The notes: generated by a model not told the origin, from the sequence alone. 64,000 nucleotides of DNA from a virus (IMGVR_UViG_3300032135_000005:1-64000); one strand, 5' to 3'. Positions 10,173-48,926 are shown, numbered from the stretch's first letter. Numbers and translations are program-made.

Positions 10173-13100
10173 TTAACATTTTTTTAGTTTACTTACAAGC
10201 TCCATATCGGAATGCTCTAGAAATTGAGTATATCTATCAGCTACATATTTGCTGAAAAATTCCTTGTACTCAGCCTCAAAATTATTTTTTTCCGCACTTT
10301 TTCTATGTGCGAAGGTAGCATTTTGTATTGCTCCTGCGTATATATCTTGAATGAACTCTATATCAGAAGCAGATTCTTTATTCTTTTCTAACCTTTCTAC
10401 AAGAACTTCTAAATACGCTTTTGCATCAGCATCATTATCTATTGTAAATTCATCTTCTGAGATAAGTTCTTTTATATAACTTCGTACCGTTTGAGTTTTA
10501 GTTACATCTTTAAAATTAGAGTGTTCATTTCCTACATTATTCATAACATTCTTGTTAACTTTACTTGCCGAATCACGTTTAGCTTTAGCTAATATACTTG
10601 CGTAAGGAACATTAAATAATGAATCTTTAGAGTGGTACTCAACAGCTAAGTTAGGTATACCCCTATCATCTTGTCTTGCGTAACCTTGCCCATCAAAGTA
10701 CAATAATCTCCATCGTTTATCTATGAATGATTTCGCGTATAAGGGTGGTTTATTTGTTTGAGTAAGACTCACATCATATATGTCGATAGGTAATGTACTT
10801 ACGTTATTAGCTAGATACATATGCATAAATGCACCTATACTATCAGTTGAATAAGAACTCTCGTCATTAGTTGTTTTCTGCAAGTCTCTAAAGAAATCAG
10901 GTAGTGAAACATTATTCGCGTCCGCTTTCTTTCCACCCATAAAATCATGATGTGCTCTAGGAGGTAAAAAATCCATGTAAGAATTTATAGACCTAGAATA
11001 CCCATAGAACATAATAGCATAATCAGCTAAACTTTTAGCTAATTTCTTTTCTATATCAGAATTTGAGTCCATTAAATCTTCATAGTAAGCAATCATTGAC
11101 TTAGCTTTCGTAGGAGTTATAGCTCTGGCCACAGTATTTCTAAACGTTACAAACTTCCTAGAACCTTCAGTTACTATGGTAAGGTTCTCAGTGAACCCAT
11201 TTTCCACTTCTGTATTTGACTTATTAATTTTTTCTCTGTAAGCTTTTAGTATGTTAGCAGTAGAATCTGGGTTAGTGCTATCAATCATACTTGTATAATC
11301 CTTAGCCATTGCCCTAGAAACTTCACTTGTATTATTGATAATAGATTTATCATTAGTTGCTACAAATGTATCGTAAGCTGCTAATACTTTAACTGCTTGA
11401 AATTCATCTAAGTACCCTAGAGTTTCAGTTGCATTTCTAATTACTTTTTGATATTGTTGTGTTGCTGTTGGAGATGTTTCCTTAAGAATTTGTAATGGTC
11501 TGTTTAAAAGATAAGTCTCCATAGTTGCCAAATGAGTGTTTATATATTTAGCGTGATCTATTTTTATCGCGTGAGCTTCATAATCTTTTTTACCTCTAAG
11601 TAAAGGTAATAGTTTTGTAGTTCCTGTTTCAAAATCAGAATGTTCTAGTACCCAAGAAGAAGTTCCTTCAATAGATGCAAGATTTTCATACTTAGCAATA
11701 ATTCCTGCGGTAGTTGTAGGAGTTCCAGAAGAATCTATATTTAATAAAGTTTGTGCTTTACTTAAAGCAGAACCGTTTGTGTATAATTCATTGAATACTT
11801 CTAATGATAATGTCATATCGTTAGGAGTTGTAGAATTCATTATACGCTTAGCATCATTCATTCCAAAATTTGGGAGTTTTTCAAAACCCTCTTCTGTATT
11901 AAGTTTTAACCCATACTTCCTAGCTATAGTACGAAGGGCTACTTCGTGAGCTTTAGTAGGATAATGCATTCTTTCTAACTTAGGATATAATGCTGCAAGT
12001 TCTTTTATTACTGGAGCATTTAAGAATGTAGTAGCGAACTCTATTCCGTGTCCTGCACTAATAAGTAATAATGCTGCTGATGCTGTATACTGATTGATAT
12101 TTAACTTACCTAATAATGGATCGTTTGCATTATCTAAGGCTGCATTTTGAATCTCAGCAATTTCATCTGATATCCTAGCTCTATATTTTCCTTTAACTAA
12201 GTTCCAAGTTTCTCCTAGTGCAACTTCTTCTGCATTTTCATTTACTCCTTTAATACGAATCGGTTTTACAAAGGCTGTACCTATATGTTTTGCTACTGCA
12301 TGACTAATAGATGCGATAGAAGATATTCCAATCATATCTCCACCTTGCATATTGTTATTTCTAAAGTCTTCTTGTGACTGTACTGATGACAACATTCCAG
12401 AAGTATCTCCATCTGTATTAGGTGGATAAAGTTCTGTTACTGCTCTAGTAAGTGAAGTAGTTCTGTTTGGAAGCAACAACTCTGAAACATAAGCAGGACT
12501 TGAAAGAACTGCTTTATGGTACTCCATAATGTAAGCTTGAGACCTATTTATAGTTGCTAGTTCTGTATTATAGTCTATCTCTTCAGCTAATGTTTCAATA
12601 TTTCCTTTTTCTAAACTATTTAGTTTATTTTGAAGATATTGAAATAATTTAGGTGCTTTTTCTTTAAGCATTGCTTTACCGGTACCTATCCCATCAGCAG
12701 GCATTACAATAGTTTTACCACTACTTTTAGCTAATTGTATTTGGGTATCTACATGATTTTTAAACCATTTAAGATCATTGTCTGTTAAATAAGAACTTGC
12801 AGAAGTGCCTCTATCTTTTTTAGTATCTATACCAATAGCATTTGATAGTCCTCTAATAACAGCTTGCGTCATTGATGGAACATGTTTAGTTACAGTTCTA
12901 TCATTAGTATTATCTCCAAATAAAAATACTTTATCTTCCTGAGACGCTACTTGTCGTCTATTCCAAAATCCTTTGAATATTTCTATTTTAGATTGTCCAA
13001 CAGTAGCATTATAATTAGAAATATCTTCATCTATAATATCTTCTAACATTTGTTTATAAGATTCAGCATGTCTATCTATAGTACTATCTAGTACATTAGC

Positions 13101-16100
13101 TCTGTCTACAACTTTTTCAAACTCAACCGCATTTAAAGTATTGTATCTTCCTAATTTTTTAATGCCTTCTTGTGTCCAACCTTCTTTATACCAAGTATTT
13201 TCATTTAACCCTTTAGTTATTTTAGTAATTTTTACAAGTATTTTTTTTGTTGTTCCATCAATAGATTTACCAAACATATAAGTATAAGAACCTTCTCTTA
13301 AATCATATTTCTTCAATTCAGAATCAGTTCTTGTTGTTCTTGTTCTAAATTTACTATCTATCATGTCAATAGAATAAGGATTTTTACCTAAGACATTTTT
13401 AACCTTTTGATTAGCTTCTTGTATAGTTCCATATTTCTCAATACCGCTTTGTAAATTTTGAGGTATTAATGTATTATTAGGTCTTAAATCTGCTTCTTTT
13501 TTAGCTTGATTATATTTATTAGTATCATCTTTAATTCTTTGTTTGGCTAATTCAGGATTCAAGTCCATTAATTTATACTGAATATTAGCATCAGGTAATA
13601 CTTTTTTAATAGCTTCAATAAAAGGTCTTCTTTTATCTTTAGTTAAGTTAGTAGTATCAAATATTACTTGTTTATTATTTTTTACCGCTTGTATAGCTCT
13701 TTTAGTGGCCTCTTCATAAATCTCTTTATCTTTAGATTTATCGTTCATATCTCCTGTAAACTTAACTCTCATTTCATCAGGAGAAATAACTACAAATTTA
13801 TTATTTTTATTTATAGATTTAATCCAAGTAGATTTACCACTACCACTTATACCAATAGGTAATATTACATCTGCTAAAGCTAACTCAGAACCTACCCGAG
13901 CCCCACTTGAACGGTAGCTTTGTTTTTTAAAGACTCCTTTGTCTACACCAAATTTGTGCATTTCAATATACACTTTATCAATATCAAAATCGGATCCGGA
14001 CTGCTCTACAATTTCCCCTGGAACTTGAATACTTGCTCCAGCTTCTGGTGGTAAGAAATCTTTGATAGTAGCTGCAAGCATAGAGTTCTTTCCTTGAGTA
14101 GGAATTCTGTATAGAACTATATCTGCAAGTCCAGCTTCTTTTACTTTAGCAATACTAATTTCTCCATTTTCAGATACTTGTCTAAATAATTGAGCATAAT
14201 TCTTATCGTTAGATTCTTGTATAAGTTTATTCCTGTGGTCAGTTAGCTCAACCTTAATAGCAGCAGGTGATAGTCTTTTATTTAAAGTCTTTCTAAAAAT
14301 TTCTACTCTAGCGTTGATATTTTTCATACCAGCTTTAGTTCTTTCTTTAGAAATCTCTCTAAGCCTATTTGTAAAGTATTGAGAACTCACTCTAACCTCA
14401 GCAGGTTTAATAGTGTAGTTTTTCGTTTCTCCTCTAGCTATGTCTTCAGCTGCAGCTAACAAAGCATCTCCTGTAAGTTCTACTGCTCCTTTCTTTATAC
14501 CTACAAACTTCAGATCACTATTTACAGAAATTCCTTCTTCTGTATACATAGTTCCCATACTAGAAACTTGAACAGCTGAGTACCCAGGAAGTTTCATTTT
14601 AGATACTTTCTTTCTAAACTCTGCTGCTATGGAAGAGTCAATAGCACTTTTAATAGTAGGGTAGTTTGCAGGTAGCAAAGAGTCTCCTTCTTCATTTAAA
14701 GTACGTAGGGCGGCTTGATAGTACTCAGCATTTTTAAATGGGTTGTACTCAAGCTCTCGTAGTATTGTATTTATGACCCTCTCCATATTTACATTACCGT
14801 TCATATCTTTATATTGGGATATGACCCCTTCTCCTATTGAAGATACTACATTAGATATTGCTTTATTGTAATTATCTAGAGCTACTGTACCGGTCTCTCC
14901 TAAAATATCTGCATTAGGATTATGATTGGCCATAATAAGTTTTCTTATCTGAGAACCAAATCTAGCTGCTGTTTTCTTAGTTACTGGAGTCACCTGAGGA
15001 ACCCTCATTCCATCATTGTCTAAAGTAATATGTTGTGCTGTATCTAGGTTTTTTATGTCTGTAACGTTCCTAATTCCTACCTTAACTGCAGATTCCATTA
15101 CAACTTCATCTGCTCTACCACTTCTAAGTTCTCTAGATATTTTTGCTAGTCCTGGAAATGCTTCATCACCGTTAGAGTTCTTACGTTCAAACAATGTAGG
15201 TATAGCTGGAAATACTGCATACTTTAATGACAGAGGTGCCATCGCATTATGTTGAGCTGATACTTTTTGTACTTTAAAGAAGAAATGTTTTAGAACTTCT
15301 AGCGTAGCATCTGAGGTAATTTCTTTTGTGTTGTCTTTAGCCCATTCATTTAATTGATCTACCATTTCTACTAGTTCATCTGTATGAATTCCTCTAGCAG
15401 CCATAGATTGTAAGTACCTATTTACACTTACAAAACCCTGTCCATCAGCTAAGTCTATACCTTCTGCATTCATAAACCCATCTCCTAATACATTGTATAC
15501 TTTACGTAATTCAGCTTTAATGTTAGCTTCTTTAAGTATTTTTAGTTTAAAAGTTTTATCTACTCCTGAATGAAACATCTTAGTGTTATGTATGATTTCA
15601 TTATTCATATCTGTTTCTAAGTCGCCTGACTCTCTCATAGTAGAGTTTATAGCAAACTTAACTCCGGGAGTAAATGGTAATCTAAATCTTTTATTTATAT
15701 TGTTTTTCTGTTCTAGTGTAGTTCCTTCTTTATAAAATGCAGGGTCTCCAGCATAAAACAATTGTTGTTCGTACCCATAAATAAAGTTGTTAGCAAGAAA
15801 CGTATCCATTTCTGCACTAGTTAAATTATTAAGGTATTTATCTTTAGATTTAAAAGAGTTGTTATCATTTTTAACAAATACTCCTTTATCTGTATAGTAC
15901 TTAGCATCTGATTCCAACATCTTAATAAACTCTTTCTCTGCTGTTGGGTAAAGTTTAGTTACTGTTGCTTCAATATTTGACTCACTTAGGTTAGCAGCAT
16001 TAATGTCTACTGCATTTAAAGACTGGAATAAATTAAATTTAGACGCATTCCCTGGAGACTTATTTGTTTTAGAATAATTTTTAAATCCTTCTAAGTTAGG

Positions 16101-18248
16101 GGATTCAATTATCCTAGCAAGTTCTCCTGCAATTTGGTCTTTAATCCATCCTGAAATATCTGCTGGAGCAATCTTTCCATCTACAACTACTTTCTGTGTA
16201 GAAGTACCTTTTTTGTAATTTAATTTAGGTACAGCTATAACTGTAAGGTTTCCATTATCCCCTTGAGTAGGGCTCATTGCATTGAAGTACCCTTGCATAG
16301 TATTTGGTCTGAAGAAGAACTGCATTCTAGATGTCAATGCATCATAGGTAGATAATTGTCCGTAAGTTCTTCCAGACTTAGCTTTTTGATTGTTTGTTAA
16401 TGTATCTAAAGATTGCACACGAAAATTTACTTTGTGAGGTCCATCTTCTGTAAGTACATTATATAAAATACTTTTGGCATACATAGGGTCACTCCCATAA
16501 TCATCTTGAGCCTCCTGAACTTCTTGTAGTCTACGCCACATATCCTGAGCTTCTGTGCTCATATTAAATGCATGAACTATTGTTCCTCTTCCTGATAAGT
16601 GAGCACCAACGTGCATATCTGTTCTAGATTCTGCTACTGCATCTGCTAGTATATTAAGGTATTTATTTTCTCCGAATGCATCTGTATCCTTAGCAAATAC
16701 ATCATTTCCAGTATAAATCTGATCCCTTACTATTTTAGCTAGCATGGTTTTGATAATTTCACTAGGAGATTTCTTAGCAGTACTATCACTAAATCTACGA
16801 GGATTGGAATGTACTAAATCTATAATAGCTTTGATATCTGATTTCCCAATTTTTGTAAGCCCGGCAAGTTCAAATTGTCTAGCTGCCTCTTCTAAATGAG
16901 TGTTCTCAAAATTATTTAATCCTTCTATATTCTTATTAGGTTCTGTTTTTCTCTTCCGCGGAATAATTTCTCCTTTCTTATTTCGTTTAACAGGTAAAGC
17001 TTGAACTGTACTTAAGTATTTACGTAGAACTTCTCTCTTCTTATCAAGAGACTTCACTGGACTTTGCTGTACATCATCTATAGTCTCACTCCACGCATCC
17101 TTAAGTTTACTCTTAACTTTAGCGTTATTGGCATCCGTCACTAAAAGAGTAGTTGCATCTTTTTCTGCAATATTAATCATATCATAATCCGCCTTAGCTA
17201 ACGTAAATAAAGCTACTGCTAGTCTATCATAGTCTCCTAAGTTAGGAACATAAACAGGTTTCTCCTCCATAAGAACCTCGTATAGAGGAATAAGTTCAGG
17301 AGTAGTAGTTAAAGAGTTCTGAAGTTTCATAGCCATTTCATCCATAGACTGAACTCCCTTGGTTACTTTAAATAACTTAGAAAGAATATCTTCTGCACTG
17401 CTAGGTCTGAAAGAACCTATTGCTGTAGTTTCATATATATTTTGTCTGTTGTATACTAAATCATCTGCAGTTTTATTAGACCACTTGTAGTTCTTTTTAA
17501 CTTTTCGTAATTTTCTTAGGGCTATTTTTAATGCGGGTAGTACTGAGTTCATAGTAGGCATCTCTAAAATATCCATAGAGTAGATAAGTTCACTTGCTGT
17601 CTCGGCTTCTTCTGCACTGTAAGTACCTTCTCCACTAGCCTCCAATGCATCTTTGTATGCTTCAGATTGGTCTATCTCTATTTGATCTTTGCCTATTCTA
17701 ATATGAATTCCTATATCTCTAAGTTTTACTCCAAGAGGACCAAGAATTTCATCTTGTCCTATGAAGTAAGGCATATCTACAATAGCTTTTTTCATTAATG
17801 CGTAATGCTCTTCTGAGTACTGGTCAGCAGCTTTACTACCAAGTTCTAGCCATATTTTGTTCCTTACTGCAGTAATAACTTTCGGAAGAAGTGTAGCATC
17901 TTTTGTAAGAGCTTTAGTGTCAATTCCTCCTAGTGTGTACATACTTTGAGTTCCCTGGATAGTACTGAAAGCTTCTACGATTTCATCAACTAAAAAGTCC
18001 ATAATATCATCCTGCTCCCTTCTGTCTTTAAACCCTTCTAGTTTATACTTAGGACTGCTTATGTAATTTTCTTGACTAACTTCTCCTTGCTCATTTTTCC
18101 CATACATTTTAATGTAGGCTTCCTTATTTGAAGATAATTCTAAGTAAGTTTCTAGGGCTTCCCCAGATTCCATAGTACTATGCAGAGCTTCAAATAGTTT
18201 TGAAGATTCTCCATTTTCTAACAATACTTGCTCTACTCGACATCCCAT
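10173..18248 (-). CDS. Virion-packaged single-chain RNA polymerase (phi14:2 gp66-like)
   Basis: 2691 aa. Catalytic GSDFDIDK motif (DFDID at 13977..13991) preceded by YRIPTQGKNSM; also ADGQG, ESAVKVG and FGSQIRKL motifs characteristic of crAss-like two-barrel RNAPs. Confidence 0.9.
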   Translation of the reverse strand: MGCRVEQVLLENGESSKLFEALHSTMESGEALETYLELSSNKEAYIKMYGKNEQGEVSQENYISSPKYKLEGFKDRREQDDIMDFLVDEIVEAFSTIQGTQSMYTLGGIDTKALTKDATLLPKVITAVRNKIWLELGSKAADQYSEEHYALMKKAIVDMPYFIGQDEILGPLGVKLRDIGIHIRIGKDQIEIDQSEAYKDALEASGEGTYSAEEAETASELIYSMDILEMPTMNSVLPALKIALRKLRKVKKNYKWSNKTADDLVYNRQNIYETTAIGSFRPSSAEDILSKLFKVTKGVQSMDEMAMKLQNSLTTTPELIPLYEVLMEEKPVYVPNLGDYDRLAVALFTLAKADYDMINIAEKDATTLLVTDANNAKVKSKLKDAWSETIDDVQQSPVKSLDKKREVLRKYLSTVQALPVKRNKKGEIIPRKRKTEPNKNIEGLNNFENTHLEEAARQFELAGLTKIGKSDIKAIIDLVHSNPRRFSDSTAKKSPSEIIKTMLAKIVRDQIYTGNDVFAKDTDAFGENKYLNILADAVAESRTDMHVGAHLSGRGTIVHAFNMSTEAQDMWRRLQEVQEAQDDYGSDPMYAKSILYNVLTEDGPHKVNFRVQSLDTLTNNQKAKSGRTYGQLSTYDALTSRMQFFFRPNTMQGYFNAMSPTQGDNGNLTVIAVPKLNYKKGTSTQKVVVDGKIAPADISGWIKDQIAGELARIIESPNLEGFKNYSKTNKSPGNASKFNLFQSLNAVDINAANLSESNIEATVTKLYPTAEKEFIKMLESDAKYYTDKGVFVKNDNNSFKSKDKYLNNLTSAEMDTFLANNFIYGYEQQLFYAGDPAFYKEGTTLEQKNNINKRFRLPFTPGVKFAINSTMRESGDLETDMNNEIIHNTKMFHSGVDKTFKLKILKEANIKAELRKVYNVLGDGFMNAEGIDLADGQGFVSVNRYLQSMAARGIHTDELVEMVDQLNEWAKDNTKEITSDATLEVLKHFFFKVQKVSAQHNAMAPLSLKYAVFPAIPTLFERKNSNGDEAFPGLAKISRELRSGRADEVVMESAVKVGIRNVTDIKNLDTAQHITLDNDGMRVPQVTPVTKKTAARFGSQIRKLIMANHNPNADILGETGTVALDNYNKAISNVVSSIGEGVISQYKDMNGNVNMERVINTILRELEYNPFKNAEYYQAALRTLNEEGDSLLPANYPTIKSAIDSSIAAEFRKKVSKMKLPGYSAVQVSSMGTMYTEEGISVNSDLKFVGIKKGAVELTGDALLAAAEDIARGETKNYTIKPAEVRVSSQYFTNRLREISKERTKAGMKNINARVEIFRKTLNKRLSPAAIKVELTDHRNKLIQESNDKNYAQLFRQVSENGEISIAKVKEAGLADIVLYRIPTQGKNSMLAATIKDFLPPEAGASIQVPGEIVEQSGSDFDIDKVYIEMHKFGVDKGVFKKQSYRSSGARVGSELALADVILPIGISGSGKSTWIKSINKNNKFVVISPDEMRVKFTGDMNDKSKDKEIYEEATKRAIQAVKNNKQVIFDTTNLTKDKRRPFIEAIKKVLPDANIQYKLMDLNPELAKQRIKDDTNKYNQAKKEADLRPNNTLIPQNLQSGIEKYGTIQEANQKVKNVLGKNPYSIDMIDSKFRTRTTRTDSELKKYDLREGSYTYMFGKSIDGTTKKILVKITKITKGLNENTWYKEGWTQEGIKKLGRYNTLNAVEFEKVVDRANVLDSTIDRHAESYKQMLEDIIDEDISNYNATVGQSKIEIFKGFWNRRQVASQEDKVFLFGDNTNDRTVTKHVPSMTQAVIRGLSNAIGIDTKKDRGTSASSYLTDNDLKWFKNHVDTQIQLAKSSGKTIVMPADGIGTGKAMLKEKAPKLFQYLQNKLNSLEKGNIETLAEEIDYNTELATINRSQAYIMEYHKAVLSSPAYVSELLLPNRTTSLTRAVTELYPPNTDGDTSGMLSSVQSQEDFRNNNMQGGDMIGISSIASISHAVAKHIGTAFVKPIRIKGVNENAEEVALGETWNLVKGKYRARISDEIAEIQNAALDNANDPLLGKLNINQYTASAALLLISAGHGIEFATTFLNAPVIKELAALYPKLERMHYPTKAHEVALRTIARKYGLKLNTEEGFEKLPNFGMNDAKRIMNSTTPNDMTLSLEVFNELYTNGSALSKAQTLLNIDSSGTPTTTAGIIAKYENLASIEGTSSWVLEHSDFETGTTKLLPLLRGKKDYEAHAIKIDHAKYINTHLATMETYLLNRPLQILKETSPTATQQYQKVIRNATETLGYLDEFQAVKVLAAYDTFVATNDKSIINNTSEVSRAMAKDYTSMIDSTNPDSTANILKAYREKINKSNTEVENGFTENLTIVTEGSRKFVTFRNTVARAITPTKAKSMIAYYEDLMDSNSDIEKKLAKSLADYAIMFYGYSRSINSYMDFLPPRAHHDFMGGKKADANNVSLPDFFRDLQKTTNDESSYSTDSIGAFMHMYLANNVSTLPIDIYDVSLTQTNKPPLYAKSFIDKRWRLLYFDGQGYARQDDRGIPNLAVEYHSKDSLFNVPYASILAKAKRDSASKVNKNVMNNVGNEHSNFKDVTKTQTVRSYIKELISEDEFTIDNDADAKAYLEVLVERLEKNKESASDIEFIQDIYAGAIQNATFAHRKSAEKNNFEAEYKEFFSKYVADRYTQFLEHSDMELVSKLKKC

Positions 18249-45575: not shown

Positions 45576-48500
45576 CTATCGTTTCATATTTGATGTAAAT
45601 AACTTACGAGAAAAGAAGTCTTTTCTTGGCGTAGCATCTACGTCTTCATCTTCCTCCTCCTCTGGTCTACCAGCGTCAATAATTATATTACGCATTTGTA
45701 TTAATTGGATGATTGCTAACATCAAAGCAATTACCCTATCAAAGTTACCGTCAACATTATACGAGATTAACTCGTCTAGCAAAGGTATACTTTTTATCGT
45801 ATGTAATTGTAATTTTCCATCGCCAATTGGTGTAAGTAACCATTCACGTAGATAAATTTCACATTCATTCTTAACTTGAGTCGGCATGTGTTGCCCGTAA
45901 ACTCTAGTTCTAGCAGTCTTAGAAGTTTCATTTGCTTTCAATACTCCAGGAGTATACGCAAGTAAATCTATAGAATACATTTTCTTAAAGTATTCTTTGA
46001 TGTGCTGCTTCTCATTTTCATACAAACAACTAGCATCTCCGTACCATCTCAGCATTCTTCTGACTTGCTCGTAAAAGTCTGAAGCTAATCCGGGTCTTCC
46101 AGTATACTCTGCTACTATTCTATCAAAGCCTCCATTAAGTGGAGTAGCTCTTTTGATAATTATTACAGAACCTAAAGATACTGAGTTAGGAGCAATATCA
46201 AAATCATAAGGGTCATTTCCTGCTACGTACCATCCATATTCTGCACGCTCGTCAGGTCGTTCCCAAATAACAACAGCTCCTGTGTTATCATCAGTAATCT
46301 TAACAGGATAACTTGCAGGTTTATAATTATCAGGATCTACATTGAAGTAAGGTTTGTAGTCCTCATCAAGAAGCATCCATCCGTCTAATCCTGTGATAGA
46401 AGGGTCATTGCCCATTGCTAACAATTGATCTTTATGTTCCTTCAAGTCAGTGGTAGGAAGAATAGAATTGTTTGTAAGTAAGAACACTTCAGAGTGCACA
46501 AGAGGTCTTTGTACAATCTCATCCTCGTAAGCTTGTTTCTTTTTAACATTCTTCTTGAGGCGTTCCCTAGTTTTATGTAAATATTTTAATGCAGCTCTCC
46601 AGTTAGTATTACCTAGCTCATCTTTGAACTGATTCAGGGTCATCCACGCAGGTACAAAGAATCCTATCTTAGTTTGGTAACCTTCAAATTCATCATCGAA
46701 CTGTAAACAATCGAATGCCGCCGGAGAATAGAATACTTGCTTCACAGCTTCTGTAGCTCCACCCGTCATATCTCCACCAGTACCGCACATCCAGATAGTA
46801 CCTTGTTTTACAGTACCATCAGCTGCAGCTTCTTTCATTTGTCCTAGAACTTCTATAAGGTTCACCATAAATCCTACTTCATCAATAGTAGCCCAGTTAG
46901 GACGCGTACCGTTGGCAGCAACGTGGTTATCATTAAAAGATCTGTGTTGTATAAGAGAAGCAGAACCTTTACGTTCCCACTGTCCTCCTATCTTGATATC
47001 GTATCCTGCAGTAATAGTATTGTGAGTAACCACATAGTCTCCACATAAGAATAATTTTGATTCATTGTCTACAGATAAACAATAAGAGTCCTCTATTATA
47101 GTAGGTTCTATATTTACAATAGCTACTGAAGTCCTACTAGTTTTACTCGTACTACTTCTAGTAGGAAGTATTCTACTTTTCTTCCTACTTAATTTGAATA
47201 CAATTTCTTCTGTATTAATAAATAATCTATAAGATTTACTGTATTTTTTAATCCCTTTATACTTCCAAGACGTTGTACGTTTCCGTAAATTTACTCTAAT
47301 GCCTAGAGAGTGACACAAGAGTTCTACCCCCTTAATAAGAGTTTTATTTTTATTAGAAAATTCTATAGTACCATCAATACCTATAGAACCGTCAGAATCT
47401 AGCAGACCTTGCAGTAAATCTTTTCTTTGTTCATAAGACCCATAGAAATATTCCTCTGGTATGTGTTTATTTTGAATAAGATTAAGCGTTTGAAGTCCTG
47501 TTCTAATAGAATTTCCCCTTATTGAACCATCTCCTACAACAAAATAATGAGGACACTTCCCTTCTATTATCTCCGCTCGAAGAGTTAGATTTTTGTATAA
47601 ACAAAGTTGTTTTAAATATTCTACAATCTCGGTATCTACAGTAGAAATAGAAGGACCTCTAGAACTCCCATCTCCTAACCATAATCCTAAAAAGTAAGGT
47701 TCTAATGTAAATTGTTTTGGAGAATACTCTAATGATTTAGTCAAAGGAAGCCTGTACATATAATCAGTCCTAGATCCTCTAATATTTACATACTTAGATT
47801 TGTAAATATCTATTAAAGACATTACTTTATTTTTACCTGCTTTAATAACCTCCCATTGATGATCTGCACCGCAATATACTACTCTACCATCTTGAAGTGT
47901 AACTTTATATTGTAATTTATCTGTAAAGGAAAATTTATTGCATACTTTAGTAAGAATACCAGAATCATCATAAATTTTATCCCCTATAGAAATATCTTTA
48001 ATTTCTTTTACACCGTCAACAGTAAAAATCTTAGTATCCCATCTTAAATCTTTACCCGTGTCCCAAGAACCTGAGTATTTCTTAAAGAATGGAGATGGGT
48101 ATACGTCATCTCCTATAACCATTTTTCCTGGTAGGTTATTAAAGCCCAGTTTTATTTTTCCTATTAAATCGTTAGAGTATTTACTATCAATAGCACCTAC
48201 TAAAGTTTCGGAAGTCATAGGTTCATCTGCCGCCTTACTTTCTAGATACTCATCATAATCTAAAGCTCCGTCAAATATGAAATTATGTCCTAGAGTTGCA
48301 GCAGCAAAGTAAGACTTTCCACCTCCTCTGGCTTCCATATCAGCCATATTGAAGTTCATATTATAGTACATCGCCTTACCCATAGGTTTCTTGAAGTATC
48401 TTCTTAAATATTCTCTAGCTGGTACATAAGTTTTAAACGTACCATCTGGTTTAGTTACAGCGTCCCGTATTAAATCAGGATTGTTGTACTCCATAAGTAA

Positions 48501-48926
48501 ATCCTCAAACTCATCAGGATCTTTATTAGGATCCACTTCATTTAAGATATTATGACAACTAATCTCATCATCCATCTCGAAACCAGAGAAGCCTTTAACT
48601 TCAGATGTTAAGGCTGCTTTGATCCATTCGAGGTCTCTTAAAAAAGGTGTTTGTGTTTTCTTGATTTTAGTCTTAGCTCCTTTTGGATTAAGTTTAATCT
48701 TCCAAAAGTTTACGAACCAATAGAGTGGGCCAGATACCCATTTATAATCTCCATTATGCTGTACCCAATACCCGTCAATACATCTACGTTTCTGAATTTT
48801 CCACCACCGTTTGTACTCTAACCCGAGAGGGTTCATACGTGGAATATCTAAAGCTACCTGTACTTTATCTACGGGTATTCGATTCTTATACAGAATCCAC
48901 ATATTATCATGTACTGGTAGCGCCAT
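45576..48926 (-). CDS. terL: Terminase large subunit (intein-containing)
   Basis: Walker A EARGGGKSY, Walker B TIDEVG, GTGGDM motif, RNase H-like nuclease motifs AGNDPYD and GNFDRVIA. Confidence 0.92.
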   Translation of the reverse strand: MALPVHDNMWILYKNRIPVDKVQVALDIPRMNPLGLEYKRWWKIQKRRCIDGYWVQHNGDYKWVSGPLYWFVNFWKIKLNPKGAKTKIKKTQTPFLRDLEWIKAALTSEVKGFSGFEMDDEISCHNILNEVDPNKDPDEFEDLLMEYNNPDLIRDAVTKPDGTFKTYVPAREYLRRYFKKPMGKAMYYNMNFNMADMEARGGGKSYFAAATLGHNFIFDGALDYDEYLESKAADEPMTSETLVGAIDSKYSNDLIGKIKLGFNNLPGKMVIGDDVYPSPFFKKYSGSWDTGKDLRWDTKIFTVDGVKEIKDISIGDKIYDDSGILTKVCNKFSFTDKLQYKVTLQDGRVVYCGADHQWEVIKAGKNKVMSLIDIYKSKYVNIRGSRTDYMYRLPLTKSLEYSPKQFTLEPYFLGLWLGDGSSRGPSISTVDTEIVEYLKQLCLYKNLTLRAEIIEGKCPHYFVVGDGSIRGNSIRTGLQTLNLIQNKHIPEEYFYGSYEQRKDLLQGLLDSDGSIGIDGTIEFSNKNKTLIKGVELLCHSLGIRVNLRKRTTSWKYKGIKKYSKSYRLFINTEEIVFKLSRKKSRILPTRSSTSKTSRTSVAIVNIEPTIIEDSYCLSVDNESKLFLCGDYVVTHNTITAGYDIKIGGQWERKGSASLIQHRSFNDNHVAANGTRPNWATIDEVGFMVNLIEVLGQMKEAAADGTVKQGTIWMCGTGGDMTGGATEAVKQVFYSPAAFDCLQFDDEFEGYQTKIGFFVPAWMTLNQFKDELGNTNWRAALKYLHKTRERLKKNVKKKQAYEDEIVQRPLVHSEVFLLTNNSILPTTDLKEHKDQLLAMGNDPSITGLDGWMLLDEDYKPYFNVDPDNYKPASYPVKITDDNTGAVVIWERPDERAEYGWYVAGNDPYDFDIAPNSVSLGSVIIIKRATPLNGGFDRIVAEYTGRPGLASDFYEQVRRMLRWYGDASCLYENEKQHIKEYFKKMYSIDLLAYTPGVLKANETSKTARTRVYGQHMPTQVKNECEIYLREWLLTPIGDGKLQLHTIKSIPLLDELISYNVDGNFDRVIALMLAIIQLIQMRNIIIDAGRPEEEEDEDVDATPRKDFFSRKLFTSNMKR
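47019..48050 (-). mobile_element. Intein with LAGLIDADG homing endonuclease, class 3-like (344 aa)
   Basis: Starts GK|DLRWDTKIFTVDG; block B CGADHQW; LAGLIDADG motifs LGLWLGDGS and LQGLLDSDGS; block F SYCLSVD; ends VVTHN|T. Confidence 0.88.

Follow-up and report, generated by a model that had tools for sequence, protein, structure and literature searches.

A nested cassette of predicted polynucleotide kinase, ASCH-fold and DUF7831 modules inserted after the catalytic motif of a putative Crassvirales-type virion RNA polymerase

Among the phages of the human gut Crassvirales predominate, and their dealings with host defences during the earliest minutes of an infection are poorly understood. A 64,000-nucleotide stretch of viral DNA (IMGVR_UViG_3300032135_000005:1-64000; hereafter the window, from whose first letter all positions are counted) raises the question of why a giant RNA polymerase gene should carry some 430-455 additional residues directly behind its catalytic motif. 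An earlier note, made from the sequence alone, had described this insertion after the motif DFDID. We found all the motifs that it quoted for the insert and the flanks in one minus-strand frame, a single open reading frame of 2691 amino acids (aa), here called P0001. Results of our analyses showed that the segment is a true insertion relative to the orthologues, and that it is built as a kinase interrupted by an ASCH-type module and followed by a DUF7831 domain. The features are as follows.

10173-18248, minus strand: predicted virion-type RNA polymerase gene (P0001), 2691 aa, homologue of phi14:2 gp66
13977-13991, minus strand: DFDID catalytic motif, aa 1420-1424, aligned to gp66 1361-DFDID-1365 (bioRxiv 10.1101/2020.03.07.982082)
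12546-13913, minus strand: entire extra segment, aa 1446-1901, of which about 20 aa may be ancestral linker; missing from P0003, P0004 and seven other orthologues
13524-13874, minus strand: N-terminal part of the predicted kinase, aa 1459-1575, with GSGKST (K1472), PDEMR (D1491, R1494), FDTTN (D1531) and lid R1571
13110-13523, minus strand: predicted ASCH-fold module, aa 1576-1713, inside the kinase lid loop, with the octapeptide K-F-R-T-R-T-T-R (aa 1633-1640) and KEGW (aa 1688-1691)
12993-13109, minus strand: C-terminal part of the predicted kinase, aa 1714-1752, DRANVLDSTIDRHAESYKQML, joined to the N-terminal part in P0007, P0008, P0009 and P0124
12618-12980, minus strand: DUF7831 domain (Pfam PF25176), aa 1757-1877, with FGDN (N1780), DTK (K1810) and PADGIGTGKA

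The insertion and its site in the polymerase

The boundaries were fixed by alignment with 13 orthologues, in which the segment did not behave as a normal polymerase region: the conserved flanks stop at Y1445 and restart at about T1899/R1902. The closest relatives, P0003 (2259 aa; flank identity to P0001 56%) and P0004 (2251 aa; 54-56%), read ...KQSY, a linker of just 20-26 aa, and then ...QAY(V/I)MEYHKA, which gives P0001 a net gain of 432-440 aa. P0001 lies between genes of 2408 aa and 1006 aa, with terminase, portal and major head protein genes upstream. The P0003 locus is syntenic with it, showing the same gene order and similar neighbour sizes (2424 / 2259 / 1022 ... 170 / 548 aa); the two proteins are therefore orthologues that are 432 aa apart in length. 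The insertion itself stood as the earlier note had claimed, although not at about 35 aa past DFDID: it starts about 22 aa after the motif, and the P-loop follows at about 45 aa. Within P0001, LPIGISGSGKST begins at aa 1463, ISPDEMR at aa 1488, VIFDTTN at aa 1528 and AKQRI at aa 1568, and polymerase-like sequence restarts with RSQAYIMEYHKAVLSSP at aa 1902 (window 12545).

A profile built from nine insertion-free orthologues matched phi14:2 gp66 (6VR4) with an E-value of 1.8e-41. P0001 alone matched the same structure at E 3.7e-16, its DFDID falling on gp66 1361-1365, and it was about 24% identical to crAss genes labelled 'putative RNA polymerase' (tblastn). Both marks of the gp66 type, DFDxD in the homologous double-psi barrel region and homology over the bridge-helix and trigger-loop regions, were found, and on these comparisons P0001 is assigned as a Crassvirales-type virion RNA polymerase. 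The scaffold of gp66 is thus homologous, but the kinase, ASCH and DUF7831 modules do not align with it, and its own linker of about 100 aa is non-homologous. Residue 1437 of P0001 aligns to gp66 residue 1392 and residue 1968 to gp66 residue 1556; the insertion site maps between gp66 1392 and the bridge helix at 1529-1559 (bioRxiv 10.1101/2020.03.07.982082).

Among 72 retrieved polymerase homologues the flank-to-flank distance at this site ranged from 10 to 436 aa. These homologues were found with a query that contained the insert, and module frequencies among them are biased upward. At the same post-DFDxD position we observed DUF7831 in P0079 and P0094 and an ASCH module in P0256. The variable gap and the varied inserts therefore indicate a socket that tolerates insertions and has been used again and again. 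P0013 and P0093 have another insert there, about 270-320 aa long and without a Pfam match; judged by eye, it carries a PD-(D/E)XK-like GT(V/L)DLL...D-x-K motif.

Lineage-specific insertions in cellular RNA polymerases are not known to be enzymatic and are generally inherited vertically within lineages, whereas the P0001 cassette is a set of swappable enzymes. They likewise place large domains near mobile catalytic elements, as SI3 does in the trigger loop (PMC10895346).

The description of the segment as AT-rich was borne out. GC content is 0.25-0.29 across the insert vs. 0.33-0.38 in the flanks; for the whole insert GC is 0.282 and GC at third codon positions (GC3) 0.114, compared with 0.343 and 0.216 in the remainder of the gene. 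The expectation came from simulations that kept the amino acids of the insert and drew codons as they are used in the scaffold and the two adjacent genes; these gave a GC of 0.320 +/- 0.006 and a GC3 of 0.21 +/- 0.018. The observed values lie below these (z = -6.0 and -5.4), and the AT-richness is therefore not due to amino-acid composition. Just 2.7% of windows of the same size within the 64 kb are equally AT-rich, and the GC3 of the insert is the lowest among all 456-codon windows in the five large genes tested.

As the segment interrupts a conserved enzyme, and as inteins and introns are abundant in crass-like phages (PMC7886860), an intein-like element or a protease might excise it from the translated protein, leaving a mature polymerase without it. 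We consider this extremely improbable. In agreement with the earlier note, no intein domain was detectable: Hint, LAGLIDADG, HNH and endonuclease families gave no match at E<=1 in a Pfam scan of P0001, and the splice-type residues (Cys/Ser/Thr, His-Asn) of an intein signature are missing at the junctions QSY/RSS ... TIN/RSQ. A family scan of P0001 showed no protease domain either. Three folded enzyme-type domains account for the whole segment, and the same modules are terminal in other proteins. Because P0001 is without an intein or protease domain, the cassette is expected to be retained in the mature polymerase.

The split kinase and the ASCH module in its lid

The call of a kinase of the AAA_33/polynucleotide-kinase type proved sound. 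Pfam AAA_33 matched with 58-61 bits (cut-off 27), PHROG 505 is annotated 'polynucleotide kinase', and the solved relatives nearest by sequence were the Clostridium thermocellum Pnkp (CthPnkp) kinase and T4 Pnk. GSGKST, IS-P-DEMR and IFDTTN align to GSGKST, IS-S-DFCR and VVDATN of CthPnkp; the Walker A motif, the Asp-x-x-Arg acceptor motif, the second Asp and the arginine lid of a Pnk-type kinase are all present, with lid arginines R1571 and R1716 on either side of the ASCH insert. Fold comparison was done with a 455-aa predicted model of the insert (mean predicted local distance difference test score, pLDDT, 82.7). The best VIA matches were CthPnkp (4gp6, Z 15.7 over 164 aa; root-mean-square deviation (rmsd) 3.2), T4 Pnk (1ly1, Z 14.8) and Pnkp1 (4xrp, Z 14.4), Foldseek ranked the same polynucleotide kinases at the top, and T4 Pnk aligned over both kinase parts of the model (residues 12-290). 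From motifs and model the domain is predicted to be a 5'-OH kinase of the T4 Pnk / Clostridium Pnkp type with its motifs intact. With these enzymes (1LY1/1LTQ, 4GP6/4JST) it has in common the P-loop, Asp-x-x-Arg, FD(T/A)TN and the arginine lid; it differs from them in that no 3'-phosphatase or ligase partner was found and in that its lid is split by the 138-aa ASCH module. The nearest kinase homologues in Bacillus phages adjoin RNA ligase genes.

The kinase could instead be zeta-toxin-like, or its target could be a nucleotide signal or a host protein, phosphorylated for takeover or for the disabling of immune signalling. Pfam Zeta_toxin does match, weakly and below its cut-off (E 0.0049), many homologues bear precomputed Zeta_toxin labels, the phosphatase partner is missing and the PF09414 ligase was not found in the partial record. 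The modules are also found together with domains that belong to the NAD/ADP-ribose network (NADAR, ART-PolyVal and SLOG-type; PMC9503650). The top matches by sequence and by fold are nevertheless polynucleotide kinases, Zeta/PezT structures score lower in VIA (Z 10.2) and the Pnk-specific D-x-x-R is conserved; we regard this alternative as very unlikely.

The earlier note had read the segment as a simple row of three domains. Instead, the ASCH module sits inside the kinase. In BLAST searches against the retrieved proteins, kinase residues 1459-1575 and 1714-1752 were unbroken in P0007, P0008, P0009 and P0124. The uninterrupted lid reads AKQRIKSDIAAGKNRANVPDSTIDRH, whereas the lid of P0001 reads AKQRIKDD, followed by 138 aa and then DRANVLDSTIDRH. 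The architecture is thus kinase-N / ASCH / kinase-C / DUF7831, nested and not tandem. Among 103 kinase modules, 90 were uninterrupted and the other 13 had an insert of 121-144 aa in the lid, which was DUF7831 in P0122 and of the ASCH type in the others examined.

The ASCH-like call was right by fold. Predicted alone from 24 sequences, the module gave a confident model (ma0c73debbe96; pLDDT 91.6, predicted template modelling score 0.86), for which Foldseek returned YqfB, 3s9x, 1t62 and PH0355 at probability 1.0. In VIA the top eight matches were all ASCH, led by YqfB (Z 9.5 over 93 aa, rmsd 2.8), and the first unrelated row scored 4.9. The lid insert is accordingly modelled as a true ASCH fold, i.e., a PUA-like beta-barrel. 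The Pfam ASCH model did not detect it at E<=1, and a profile search with the ASCH alignment against PDB sequences found nothing. In an exhaustive phmmer search of 1.84 billion representatives the 138-aa module turned up in just 90 clusters; most copies belong to proteins 2000-6000 aa long, and some stand alone (130-320 aa).

YqfB (9KYF), TthASCH and ZmASCH share the beta-barrel and have the octapeptide at the same place. The Lys of this octapeptide is essential in YqfB and TthASCH (PMC6972931; bioRxiv 10.64898/2026.02.27.708502). The P0001-type family has the consensus G-x-R-T-R-T-T-R (K-F-R-T-R-T-T-R in P0001) in place of G-x-K-x-x-(E/T)-x-R. Thr6 and Arg8 are as in YqfB, but by sequence position, not superposition, Arg replaces the catalytic Lys throughout. 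Unlike YqfB and TthASCH, the family is also missed by Pfam ASCH and occurs mostly in giant phage proteins. In the free-standing proteins P0302, P0303, P0247 and P0314 the module lies between apparent halves of a GGQTGxDE (YpsA/SLOG-like) domain, and it may be nested in other hosts as well as in the kinase lid.

DUF7831 and the macrodomain question

The third domain had been called macro-like, a label that our results supported weakly. It is Pfam DUF7831: PF25176 matched with 92.8-99.8 bits (cut-off 27) over model positions 2-117 of 118, and this part of the insert model has a pLDDT of 92-97. Invariant residues include FGDN, QAxIRG, NAxGIxTK and PxxGxGTGxA. Pfam Macro (PF01661) matched none of 18 DUF7831 members at a threshold of E<=10 and nothing in the record at E<=0.1, whereas PhiKZ gp104 (AdfM, PMC13309987) does match Pfam Macro, with 30 bits. 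An hhalign comparison of 65 DUF7831 segments with 111 AdfM-type macros gave P 0.0048 (probability 7%), near the level of an unrelated control pair (P 0.011). That near-control-level alignment has 68 collinear columns and puts DTK on PTK and PADGIGTG on PPLGCANG; a relaxed version of it is needed to bring N1780 (FGDN) onto the catalytic VN (AdfM N23) together with K1810 on PTK. The likeness to DarG/TARG1 macrodomains and AdfM consists of a small alpha/beta domain and a collinear series, FGDN/VN, DTK/PTK and P-x-x-G-x-G-x-G/PPLGCANGG, in an alignment close to control level; from their first Gly-rich loop and helix, about 27 residues have no counterpart in DUF7831 in that alignment.

Other searches did not place DUF7831 in a fold class. 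Run with the full 455-aa model, Foldseek against PDB, VIA wide and BFVD returned kinase matches or functionally unnamed DUF7831 proteins. In BFVD the top neighbours were DUF7831 proteins of giant viruses, of rhizobial and Caulobacter phages and of crAss-like genomes such as cr131_1, and adjacent matches from cr130_1 and cr272_1 were not named DUF7831. The DUF7831 alignment profile found nothing among PDB sequences, and NCBIfam and Pfam searches for DUF7831 at E<=10 gave noise alone. An atlas look-up, taken for leads alone, pointed to an 'A1S_2505 family' cluster (0.89) and to a cluster with 11% Macro (0.82); a literature search for DUF7831 gave no match.

A SLOG assignment was rejected: hhalign probabilities of 42-70% against GGQTGxD slices came from contamination, as the P0200 slice held the C-terminal half of DUF7831 and others contained ASCH.

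In P0200, P0079, P0117 and P0033 a further insert splits DUF7831 itself, after the long helix and before the IVxP strand, so that it offers a third recurrent insertion socket. The insert in P0200 is a short GGQTGxD (SLOG-like) piece.

Module exchange and the proposed role of the cassette

The best identity to copies in unrelated giant proteins was 88% for the kinase, 84% for DUF7831 and 76% for ASCH, compared with 56% for the best scaffold match. Copies 60-88% identical occur at other positions, N-terminal, C-terminal or internal, in many giant phage proteins, together with domains bearing Zeta_toxin-type labels, ART-PolyVal, NADAR, 2OG-Fe(II), PDDEXK and SLOG-type domains. Polymerase homologues carry the modules mostly at the N terminus and sometimes at the C terminus; a large clade, including Crassvirales sp. 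proteins, has DUF7831 at aa 65-190. Several unrelated effector domains are thus shuffled among homologues, and this is the pattern of polyvalent proteins (PMC5512222; PMC9503650). Those proteins are likewise giant, probably delivered with the virion and made of shuffled effector domains; N4-like virion RNA polymerases are among the carriers, and ART-PolyVal, NADAR, SLOG-type domains and Zeta-type kinases are partners common to them and to homologues of the P0001 modules. In P0001, by contrast, the cargo is internal and adjoins the catalytic motif, with one domain set in another and both set in the enzyme. In the text of the polyvalent-protein paper (PMC5512222), as searched, there is no mention of polynucleotide kinase, of ASCH or of crAss-type polymerases.

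In a related phage (L003:8001-10618, also L004 and L005), a separate 648-aa gene lies 3 nt after the giant polymerase gene. Its product, P0122, is the same kinase with DUF7831 in the lid and a second insert of about 107 aa, and a GIY-YIG/NUMOD3 homing endonuclease gene follows directly.

The cassette might be a selfish or neutral passenger, domain-sized DNA that recombination or homing has carried into a permissive loop, where it is tolerated with no benefit to the phage. The deviant codon usage of the insert, the unrelated inserts taken up by the same loop, the GIY-YIG gene behind P0122 and the nearest orthologues that lack the cassette are all consistent with this. We hold it to be quite unlikely all the same: every catalytic motif of the kinase is intact, module identity of 60-88% across very different hosts and positions argues for purifying selection, and no endonuclease, intein or intron feature was found in or beside the insert.

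The explanation that we favour, and hold to be reasonably probable, is a horizontally acquired, in-frame, polyvalent-type effector cassette in the linker of a virion polymerase, delivered for nucleic-acid healing or counter-defence. The cassette would have been grafted into a linker of variable length that joins the catalytic double-psi barrel (DFDID) to the bridge helix. Its first unit would be a Pnk-type 5'-OH polynucleotide kinase whose lid loop bears the ASCH module (PUA-like, RNA- or modified-cytidine-binding); its second, DUF7831, may be a stripped-down DarG/TARG1-like ADP-ribose hydrolase. As phi14:2 gp66 is virion-borne and transcribes early genes (bioRxiv 10.1101/2020.03.07.982082), and as RNA polymerase-associated proteins were detected in PhiCrAss001 virions by mass spectrometry (PMC10172136), the P0001 cassette is by analogy probably packaged and ejected as well. 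On this ground the co-injection proposed by the earlier note is a fair inference; its anti-defence function we put forward conditionally.

Because polymerases homologous to P0001 travel inside the virion and enter the host along with the DNA, the cassette would be present, fully formed, from the very start of infection and attached to the enzyme that transcribes the entering genome. We infer that it could there heal or de-modify nucleic acids hurt or marked by host defences, the proposed targets being the 5'-OH ends that defence RNases leave behind and, possibly, bases that have been ADP-ribosylated. The substrate of the kinase would be 5'-OH nucleic-acid ends, because its Pnk motifs are intact. 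The ASCH module, located in the lid that closes over the Pnk active site, could select or hold an RNA substrate, and DUF7831 may take off an ADP-ribose-type mark.

Several points weigh against this reading. A 3'-phosphatase domain was not found in P0001 (family scan), nor was the RNA ligase family PF09414 found in the ~93.7 kb record, for which CheckV completeness is only 60%; these two partners of bifunctional Pnkp-type RNA repair were thus not found, and the record, at that completeness, does not encode a full T4-style RNA repair pathway. Deacetylase activity of the ASCH module is doubtful because Arg stands in place of the catalytic Lys, and the link of DUF7831 to macrodomains is weakly suggested, as a lead. 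The high identity of the module copies could in part be due to enzymes that evolve slowly while the scaffold around them evolves fast, and not to recent transfer. Extra globular domains would carry a cost, because cargo proteins partly unfold to pass the tail (PMC10172136), and the nearest orthologues P0003 and P0004 do without the cassette.

The modules might also serve the polymerase in cis, cleaning or conditioning the incoming template or the first transcripts and not attacking host systems, e.g., by removing base adducts ahead of the enzyme or by phosphorylating or binding RNA ends. The site about 22 aa from the catalytic motif, the transcription of single-stranded or denatured DNA by gp66 (bioRxiv 10.1101/2020.03.07.982082) and the RNA-associated nature of the ASCH fold agree with such a role. 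Closeness is evidently not required, however: in most polymerase homologues the same modules lie about 1400-2500 aa away, at the N or C terminus, and they also occur free-standing and in giant proteins that do not match the polymerase flanks. We therefore judge it rather unlikely. A doubtful possibility, more elaborate, is a first-minute repair machine that works beside the active site in cis, in which DUF7831 would strip ADP-ribose-type adducts from the template, ASCH would direct the kinase towards certain RNA ends or modified cytidines, and the post-DFDxD loop and the kinase lid would be evolved sockets where phages exchange tools.

Returning to the polyvalent-type cassette, its general principle is already known, while its placement and nesting in P0001 appear from the sequence to be new: we found no publication on placement right after the catalytic motif, three-level nesting, a kinase-lid socket or the rare ASCH family with Arg for Lys. 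An injected crAss-type polymerase can, on these results, double as a carrier of swappable enzymes. Two recurrent insertion sockets are indicated, the loop after DFDxD and the kinase lid, and the locus supplies three strongly conserved, uncharacterised modules. If the proposed functions hold, the polyvalent-protein idea would extend to enzymes housed within a polymerase's catalytic core.

Two further observations were made in the window. Cys3 of the polymerase and its very last residue, also Cys, are invariant in all nine insertion-free orthologues (window 18240-18248 and 10173-10178). The terminase large subunit gene (45576-48926, minus strand) is unusually long at 1116 aa; its N-terminal ~280 residues have no PHROG match, TerL profile matches fall separately at aa 286-638 and 639-1109, and it may hold an extra domain or insertion.

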